Assembly: GCA_000442015.1 (NCBI GenBank)
Contig: KE561167.1
Coordinates: 1-64,000 of the forward strand
Reading direction: 5' to 3'
Source of the DNA: Rozella allomycis CSF55
Lineage: Eukaryota
DNA length: 64,000 nt
Shown here: piece after piece, positions 53,104 through 54,267 of the stretch
How positions within the stretch are numbered: position 1 is the stretch's first letter
Layout: each line of letters starts with the position of its first letter
Translations under genes and position numbers: made by a program
Notes under the pieces: model-generated
What the model saw: the letters and a program-made list of their open reading frames with translations, nothing else
Databases searched by the model: none
What the model was told of the DNA's origin: nothing

Positions 53104-53183
53104 ACAACGATAAATAAATTTGTAAATTCTACTAGTATTTTTAATTTTGAAATTGCTAGAGTGTGAGAATCTTTTAAAGGGGT

Positions 53184-53199
53184 GGCTTCTAAAGAAGCC
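53184..53199 (-). promoter_or_regulatory. Histone-type 3' stem-loop of H4 mRNA
   Basis: Sense strand CCAATC-GGCTTC-TTTA-GAAGCC-ACCCC, 14 nt after the stop codon. Confidence 0.85.
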
Positions 53200-53213
53200 G
53201 ATTGGATAATCAA

Positions 53214-53525
53214 TTATAAACCAAAACCATACAGAGTACGTCCTTGTCTCTTCAAAGCATAGACGACATCAATAGCAGTGACAGTCTTTCTCTTAGCATG
53301 TTCAGTGTAGGTAACAGAGTCACGGATGACGTTTTCCAAAAAGGTACGAAGAACAGAGCGAGTTTCTTCGTAGATCAACCCAGAGATACGCTTCACACCT
53401 CCTCTACGAGCGAGACGACGAATAGCTGGTTTGGTAATACCTTGAATGTTGTCTCTTAAAATTTTGCGATGGCGTTTAGCACCTGATTTTCCTAATCCTT
53501 TTCCTCCTTTTCCACGTCCAGTCAT
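53214..53525 (-). CDS. HHF1: Histone H4
   Basis: [11 protein letters not shown]...[33 protein letters not shown]; intronless. Confidence 0.99.
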
Positions 53526-53690
53526 GTTGTTGGAAAGGTGGGAATGAGACCAGTATATATAGTAGCAATGACCGGGGTCGCTGCATATTGCTCCAAATAT
53601 TTCCCGCCAAAAATACTGACATCTGATTGGTCAATTTTGGCGCCAACAAAAATATAAATACGGAGCGCAATTTCACCCTCCAACAATCAA
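53526..53690. promoter_or_regulatory. Bidirectional histone promoter with two TATA boxes, a CCAAT box and two E2F-type sites
   Basis: TATATATA 53554-53561; TTTCCCGCCAAAA 53600-53612; CTGATTGG 53623-53630; TTTTGGCGCC 53635-53644; TATAAATA 53653-53660. Confidence 0.7.
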
Positions 53691-54110
53691 ATGGCACGTA
53701 CTAAACAAACTGCACGCAAATCTACTGGTGGTAAAGCTCCACGCAAACAATTGGCAACCAAAGCTGCACGCAAGTCTGCACCAGCATCCGGCGCTGGAGG
53801 TATCAAAAAGGCTCACCGTTACAGACCAGGAACTGTCGCTCTTCGTGAAATCCGTCGTTACCAAAAATCTACTGAACTTTTGATCCGTAAATTGCCATTT
53901 CAAAGACTTGTTCGTGAAATTGCTCAAGACTTCAAGACTGATCTCCGTTTCCAATCTGCTGCTATTGGTGCTCTTCAAGAAGCTGCTGAAGCTTACCTCG
54001 TTGGATTGTTTGAAGATACTAACCTTTGCGCTATCCATGCTAAGCGTGTTACCATTATGCCAAAAGACATTCAATTGGCAAGACGTATCCGCGGAGAACG
54101 CAGCAACTAA
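53691..54110 (+). CDS. HHT1: Histone H3
   Basis: [21 protein letters not shown]...[21 protein letters not shown]; intronless. Confidence 0.99.
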
Positions 54111-54128
54111 ATAATCAAATTATTAAAA

Positions 54129-54144
54129 GGCTTTTCTAAAAGCC
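54129..54144 (+). promoter_or_regulatory. Histone-type 3' stem-loop of H3 mRNA
   Basis: AAAA-GGCTTT-TCTA-AAAGCC-GCC, 18 nt after the stop codon. Confidence 0.8.
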
Positions 54145-54267
54145 GCCTGATTTTGTTGGATAACAAGTATTCTTGTATTCCAACTGATTTGGTGGTAAAA
54201 TAAAATCGGCTTATAAATCAACTTGTAAAACTAACTCATCTTGTTTTTTACATTTAAAATTTATTAA

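Follow-up and report, generated by a model that had tools for sequence, protein, structure and literature searches.

Histone-type 3' stem-loops behind a divergent H4–H3 gene pair of the early-diverging fungus Rozella allomycis

The 64-kb stretch of DNA analysed here (positions 1 to 64,000 of contig KE561167.1 of Rozella allomycis CSF55, referred to as the window) contains a divergent pair of core-histone genes, H4 and H3, at 53214-54110. Both genes are intronless, and the list of open reading frames (ORFs) and the window sequence place 165 bp between them. Each gene is followed, shortly after its stop codon, by a small hairpin. In animals and many protists, the histone 3' stem-loop is a cis element bound by the stem-loop binding protein (SLBP). 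A first-pass annotation of the window, made from the sequence letters, had described the two hairpins as animal-style histone stem-loops and had proposed that an SLBP-based histone mRNA pathway survives in this fungal lineage. The genes and hairpins are given below, together with the extent of the matches to the Rfam Histone3 model.

53214-53525, minus strand: histone H4 gene; unbroken ORF of 103 aa, C-terminus GFGL followed by TAA; best PDB matches are solely histone H4 chains (E 2e-58)
53691-54110, plus strand: histone H3 gene; unbroken ORF of 139 aa with a TAA stop; Pfam Histone, E 7.6e-48; best PDB matches H3.3 (E 2.5e-79)
53526-53690, no strand assigned: shared divergent promoter region of H4 and H3, 165 bp; a paralogous pair has an unlike 161-nt spacer at the same place
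53184-53199, minus strand: H4 3' stem-loop GGCTTC/TTTA/GAAGCC, separated from the stop by 14 nt and flanked by CCAATC (5') and ACCCC (3'); Histone3 match 53204-53158 on the minus strand
54129-54144, plus strand: H3 3' stem-loop GGCTTT/TCTA/AAAGCC, separated from the stop by 18 nt and flanked by AAAA (5') and GCCTG (3'); Histone3 match 54124-54170 on the plus strand

The absence of introns, which had been annotated for both genes, is evident from their unbroken ORFs of 103 and 139 aa. A PDB sequence search revealed that the H3 protein is H3.3-like (AAIG) and has two extra residues in its N-terminal tail. In independently assembled contigs of a public sequencing run (X1), the 3' ends of both genes and the genes around them match the window without a single difference (52300-53294 and 53909-55500). 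The attribution of the locus to an early-diverging fungal lineage was correct: the ORF at 33028-34449, which encodes XPB, shows 100% identity to a protein listed at NCBI as 'DNA repair helicase rad25 [Rozella allomycis CSF55]' (next best match 78%), and NCBI places this organism in Fungi, phylum Rozellomycota.

On the minus strand, the H4 TAA is followed by 14 nt, then by GGCTTC TTTA GAAGCC (53199 to 53184) and then by ACCCC TTTAAAAGA. Both hairpins have a perfect 6-bp stem that starts with GGC (GGC...GCC) and a 4-nt loop with T/U at positions 1 and 3 (UUUA in H4 and UCUA in H3). The sixth stem pair is C-G in the H4 hairpin and T-A in the H3 hairpin, which is a both-sided, compensatory change. 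In position, both are located on the coding strand shortly 3' of a core-histone stop, 14 nt for H4 and 18 nt for H3. In form, both consist of a 6-bp stem and a 4-nt loop. The hairpin sequences, stems, loops, compensatory pair, and distances reported in the first-pass annotation are all present in the sequence. SLBP contacts the G-C second stem pair and the U residues in the first and third loop positions, all of which occur in both hairpins. A G-C first pair, likewise present in both, and an A-rich 5' flank also count in SLBP recognition. The second-pair G-C and the third loop U are named in a preprint of 16 Oct 2026 by Zhao, Bond, and Ni Leathlobhair (bioRxiv 10.64898/2026.10.14.759114), which is cited throughout from the part of its text that was available.

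Pattern matching, covariance models, and folding were used to evaluate the two elements. A degenerate hairpin pattern (GGCYYYTNTNRRRGCC) was run over both strands of the window and over 100 shuffles. It matched twice in the window, exactly at the H4 and H3 hairpins, compared with a shuffle mean of 0.02, and none of the 100 shuffles contained two matches. The Rfam Histone3 model (RF00032), applied in E-value mode, aligned full-length and in sense orientation to the H4 site with 31.2 bits (E 1e-6 locally and 5.5e-5 for the whole window) and to the H3 site with 23.5 bits (E 7e-4 locally and 0.039 for the whole window). It was the best family at both sites and had no other match in the window. The full-length coverage of both sites and the two pattern matches against 0.02 expected bear out the description of the stem-loops as animal-style. 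The minimum free energy (MFE) folds of both 3' untranslated regions (UTRs) include the hairpin, with -9.6 kcal/mol for H4 (z -2.83; 0 of 200 shuffles as good) and -8.7 kcal/mol for H3 (z -1.34; 18 of 200 shuffles as good). The H4 and H3 elements are genuine histone-type 3' stem-loops, and the observation made in the first pass is confirmed.

Environmental H3 loci served solely for comparing hairpin shape and stop-to-stem spacing; they were not treated as relatives of Rozella. An H3-based scan of metagenome contigs yielded 80 eukaryotic loci with 88-94% identity, and 78 were retained after two loci in which the H3 frame was not parsed (L017 and L057) had been dropped. The encoded H3 is 135 aa long in 75 of these loci and 134, 136, or 137 aa in one each; none has the 139 aa of the Rozella protein. 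A GG..CC hairpin with a 6-bp stem and a 4-nt loop is located within 120 nt of the stop in 50 of the 78 loci. Among these 50, the loop carries U1 and U3 in 43 and the 3' flank starts with AC in 43; the stem lies at least 16 nt from the stop, with a median of 32 nt. The Rozella hairpins lie within the natural variation of environmental histone hairpins. The H4 hairpin is typical in all respects save its short distance, and the H3 hairpin is atypical in its GCC flank. Four environmental H3 genes ending in GERS (L048, L049, L052, and L062) are followed by GGATTT TCTA AAATCC with an ACCCAT flank. This hairpin has the same loop as that of Rozella H3 and a both-sided change at the third stem pair.

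Paralogous copies offer a further view of the elements. Logan contigs of four public runs (X1, X6, X7, and X9) were aligned to 52300-55500, and a second divergent H4–H3 pair was found in the contigs of X1, X6, and X7. The second-pair H4 aligns to 53183-53525 with 55-56 substitutions (approximately 16%) and 8-9 gaps. Within the 14-nt stop-to-hairpin spacer, it has 8 inserted bases and 4 substitutions, so that its spacer is approximately 22 nt long. The alignment continues through the hairpin and ends 1 nt past the stem. No difference within the hairpin (53184-53199) occurs among the 40 of 246 differences listed, and the second-pair hairpin is apparently unchanged. Behind it, at a loose contig end of X7 at 53183, the six positions after the first base all differ from the window, and the flank starts with ATTAAA. 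At positions 8-15 past the stem, TAAAAGAT is found again, followed by renewed divergence. A third H4 copy (X6) aligns from 53169 and covers both this block and the hairpin. Overall, the genome contains at least two further H4 copies, as well as further H3 copies, in divergent pairs (X1, X6, and X7). The corresponding feature of the window is as follows.

53169-53176, minus strand: purine-rich block TAAAAGAT, a putative histone downstream element (HDE) that occupies positions 8-15 behind the H4 stem; identical and in register in the second H4 copy

As a word, TAAAAGAT is not enriched. It occurs 13 times in the two strands of the window (128 kb) compared with 9.4 expected, or approximately once per 10 kb of strand. 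A match in register behind two H4 copies is nevertheless unlikely to arise by chance. We take the retention of hairpin and block within a diverged spacer and flank as a sign that selection acts, in H4 at any rate, on both the stem-loop and the short purine-rich element that follows it. Inspection of the sequence behind the H3 hairpin revealed no comparable purine-rich block, and an Rfam search of the window in E-value mode gave no U7 match. In the 3' UTR of the second H3 copy, GGCCTT followed by TTTG was seen 20 nt after the stop; this may be another stem-loop but was not counted as a hairpin, the sequence listed for that end being cut at 30 letters. The metatranscriptome run X9 was considered as a source of RNA evidence and set aside as uninformative on the locus. 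Its 64 contig pieces are all less than 95% alike, and its depth is confined to the H4 and H3 bins, save for one low-depth bin at 55189-55295. From this similarity and depth pattern, the pieces are assigned to other organisms.

Several observations weigh against reading the two elements as histone mRNA stem-loops bound by SLBP. The H4 and H3 hairpins score 2.8 and 10.5 bits below the curated Histone3 gathering score of 34 bits. Because both scores are under 34 bits, an Rfam scan of the window at default gathering thresholds reported just one tRNA and neither hairpin. The gathering threshold is a score cut-off set by curators and not a biological feature, and the last 22 positions of the model are unpaired downstream sequence that contributes little here. 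The Histone3 search proposed in the first pass for all histone genes, made here on the window, has a divided outcome, with both hairpins matched by E value and both short of the gathering score. The fold stability of the H3 hairpin is unexceptional (z -1.34). In the flanks, H4 (CCAAUC/ACCCC) is close to the Histone3 consensus, whereas H3 has AAAA on the 5' side but GCCUG on the 3' side and lacks the ACC of most histone stem-loops. The 3' flank is also not conserved between the two H4 copies, which have ACCCC and a flank starting AUUAAA, respectively. With 14 and 18 nt between stop and stem, the two hairpins are at or below the environmental minimum (16 nt, median 32 nt), and both distances are shorter than the 25-60 nt given for animals (bioRxiv 10.64898/2026.10.14.759114). 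At so short a distance, a ribosome terminating at the stop codon would extend nearly as far as the hairpin. Finally, the criteria of the preprint, as given in its available part, are loose: a 6+4 hairpin is accepted anywhere within 300 nt, even with one mismatch, and 'AAA' or 'AAGA' is taken as an HDE.

Poly(A)-like hexamers are also present at the locus. The first-pass annotation had held that both genes lack a stop-proximal AATAAA. This needs qualifying, as hexamers are found at 53145-53140 behind H4 and at 54122-54127 and 54199-54204 behind H3.

53140-53145, minus strand: ATTAAA hexamer, possible poly(A) signal, located 38 nt beyond the H4 stem-loop (offset of 68 relative to the stop)
54122-54127, plus strand: ATTAAA hexamer that abuts the 5' side of the H3 stem and overlaps its A-rich flank, offset 11 from the stop
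54199-54204, plus strand: AATAAA hexamer, possible poly(A) signal, 54 nt past the H3 stem-loop, offset 88 from the stop

A poly(A)-like hexamer lies within 150 nt of the stop in roughly half of the 68 window ORFs of at least 100 aa. Since such hexamers are common in AT-rich DNA (35.5% GC), they neither prove nor exclude polyadenylation of the H4 and H3 mRNAs.

The hairpins are probably functional histone stem-loops of the SLBP type, passed down from the system of ancestral eukaryotes, a reading that we hold with good confidence on the basis of sequence comparison. In the mechanism envisaged, an SLBP orthologue would bind the H4 and H3 hairpins on the histone mRNA or its precursor. This binding would mark histone messages as a class for their own mode of 3'-end formation and turnover. 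The pathway would have been inherited from ancestral eukaryotes and lost by later fungi. No SLBP domain was found in the 44 window ORFs and exon pieces scanned. For the species, the preprint lists R. allomycis as SLBP-encoding, describes stem-loops downstream of all its core histones, and reports more generally that early-diverging fungi retain SLBP orthologues and stem-loops (bioRxiv 10.64898/2026.10.14.759114). It also predicts LSM11, a FLASH-like region, and a U7-like RNA in R. allomycis. The interpretation put forward in the first pass is supported, with its SLBP and U7 protein half resting on these reports.

How the 3' ends of the messages are formed is a separate question, and two answers have to be weighed. 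The hairpins could be real SLBP sites that serve only stability or translation, while cleavage and polyadenylation take place downstream, driven either by a poly(A) signal or by a poly(A) polymerase of the non-canonical type. This is a serious possibility that falls a little short of probable. The A[AT]TAAA hexamers 38 nt past the H4 hairpin and 54 nt past the H3 hairpin fit such a mode, as do the one that abuts the H3 stem and the ATTAAA that starts the flank of the H4 paralogue straight after its stem; given that about half of the 68 ORFs in this 35.5% GC DNA have hexamers, however, they carry little weight. The lack of conservation in the 3' flanks and the lack of a purine-rich block behind H3 point the same way, whereas the 8-nt block that stands in register behind two H4 hairpins looks more like an element that pairs with U7. 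According to the preprint, Cryptomycota loci are mostly classed as stem-loop plus poly(A) signal, transcripts with both hairpin and poly(A) occur in Blastocladiomycota (its transcript evidence comes from fungi other than Rozella), and no fungus has both LSM10 and LSM11. On the other side, the LSM11, FLASH-like domains, and U7-like RNA predicted in R. allomycis (bioRxiv 10.64898/2026.10.14.759114) speak against this mode. An enzyme that could add tails is encoded within the window, approximately 6 kb from the histone pair: a multi-exon gene at 60043-61377 (minus strand) for a Cid1/GLD2-type non-canonical nucleotidyltransferase, of which the exon pieces match MTPAP-like palm, NTP_transf_2, and PAP_assoc domains. 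The closeness of this gene to the histone pair may be a coincidence. Enzymes of this type have been proposed as candidate histone-mRNA tail-adders in SLBP-positive fungi (bioRxiv 10.64898/2026.10.14.759114).

Alternatively, the ends could be made as in animals, by a U7 small nuclear ribonucleoprotein (snRNP)-like cut a few nucleotides past the stem. SLBP and the pairing of a U7-like RNA with the purine-rich element would direct this cut, and the mRNAs would be non-polyadenylated. We regard this as only slightly less likely than downstream polyadenylation. The order of ACCCC and TAAAAGAT behind the H4 stem resembles the animal arrangement, and TAAAAGAT is equally spaced in a diverged H4 copy in which 0 of 6 intervening flank positions are alike; the shared 8-mer could, however, also be leftover homology between paralogues. 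The Rozella block starts just 8 nt after the stem, which is closer than is known for animal HDEs. The H3 hairpin lacks a comparable block, and there is no U7 match in the 64-kb window. Of the trans-acting factors, LSM11, a FLASH-like region, and a U7-like snRNA are reported in R. allomycis (bioRxiv 10.64898/2026.10.14.759114), but the U7 call is based on a low Rfam threshold and, within the available text, LSM10 is reported only in a fungus other than Rozella. A complete animal-style pathway in R. allomycis, with SLBP, a U7-like snRNP, a cut guided by UAAAAGAU 7 nt past the stem, and no poly(A), is more demanding still and rather unlikely. If true, U7-dependent histone processing would date back to an ancestor shared by animals and fungi, and Rozella would be the first fungus with non-polyadenylated mRNAs.

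Two further explanations fare much worse. Decaying relics, chance palindromes, or generic terminator-like hairpins unrelated to SLBP would account for the Histone3 scores below the cut-off and for the unexceptional H3 fold, and decayed stem-loop-like hairpins are described in other fungi without SLBP (bioRxiv 10.64898/2026.10.14.759114). Such an origin is improbable, given two independent occurrences in the expected place and on the expected strand with none elsewhere in 64 kb, the retention of all diagnostic positions in AT-rich DNA, and a hairpin kept in the H4 paralogue despite a diverged spacer and flank. A non-fungal locus, brought in as contamination by the host or by some other eukaryote that normally has histone stem-loops, is conceivable, as Rozella is an obligate parasite and DNA preparations include host DNA, but it can be dismissed as very improbable in view of the gene in the same window whose product shows 100% identity to a protein annotated in R. 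allomycis CSF55, the window GC of 35.5%, and the independent contigs that join H4 and H3 to their neighbour genes with 0 differences.

As working SLBP-type stem-loops that are selectively maintained in the earliest-branching fungal lineage, the two hairpins would show that fungi inherited the pathway and later lost it. Rozella may represent a tractable place to study how a whole gene class switches from hairpin to poly(A) ends. Two features of the locus lend themselves to experiments: the very small gap between stop and hairpin, and the putative downstream element.

The surroundings of the gene pair contain several features of their own. A polysaccharide deacetylase gene at 52306-53103 (plus strand) is convergent with H4, and its stop is 80 nt from the H4 hairpin. 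The H4–H3 pair is located inside an 11-kb segment flanked by the arms of a 1,121-bp inverted repeat (45634-46754 and 57775-58895, 96% complementary). Each arm contains a gene for a 350-aa fasciclin-domain protein, and the two proteins are 97% identical. This arrangement may have arisen by inverted duplication in the recent past, or it may be a segment that can invert. Further genes include a GH18 chitinase at 8939-10477 (plus strand), a CBM19 domain protein at 38177-38923 (minus strand), and a DM10-domain protein at 62316-63209 (minus strand), the domain of the last being flagellar. Together with the polysaccharide deacetylase, this gene content fits a zoosporic, chitin-handling parasite. The region at 47110-48816 (minus strand) encodes a 568-aa protein with 'predicted AAA-ATPase' and PD-(D/E)XK nuclease (PDDEXK_9) domains, and it adjoins two ORFs with FtsX-like permease domains at 49703-52051 (plus strand). 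Domain types of this kind are more usual in prokaryotes. The sole tRNA in the window is tRNA-Leu(CAA), 84 nt long, at 34743-34826 (plus strand).

In an older view, fungi lack SLBP and stem-loops, and their histone mRNAs are polyadenylated (Lopez and Samuelsson 2008, as cited in bioRxiv 10.64898/2026.10.14.759114). Among the matches listed for literature on SLBP in fungi, chytrids, or Rozella, the preprint was the sole relevant report, and an earlier one may exist beyond those matches. The histone stem-loops of R. allomycis are already described there for the species. Because the preprint makes this point, the present locus is mainly an independent confirmation. To the preprint, the present analysis adds a test against chance, scores from covariance models, a comparison with paralogues, and one specific candidate for a downstream element. 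Organism and phenomenon are the same in both accounts, whereas the typical stop-to-stem distance is approximately 26 nt in the preprint and 14 and 18 nt here, with approximately 22 nt in the paralogous H4.

Compared with the metazoan element recognized by Histone3 and SLBP, the Rozella hairpins share the position just past the stop of intronless core-histone genes, the 6-bp stem starting with GGC, the U1/U3 loop, and a broadly A-rich 5' flank. For H4 alone, the likeness extends to the 3' side, where a flank of the ACC type precedes a purine-rich block. They differ from it in the GCC rather than ACC flank of H3, in scores under the curated cut-off, and in the presence of hexamers after both hairpins. 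The Rozella H3 protein is moreover of the H3.3 type and not an animal replication-type H3. Outside animals and fungi, related systems are known from other supergroups, with an SLBP homologue in Dictyostelium and non-polyadenylated histone genes in the algae Chlamydomonas and Volvox (PMC5054213; bioRxiv 10.64898/2026.10.14.759114, both cited from the parts available).

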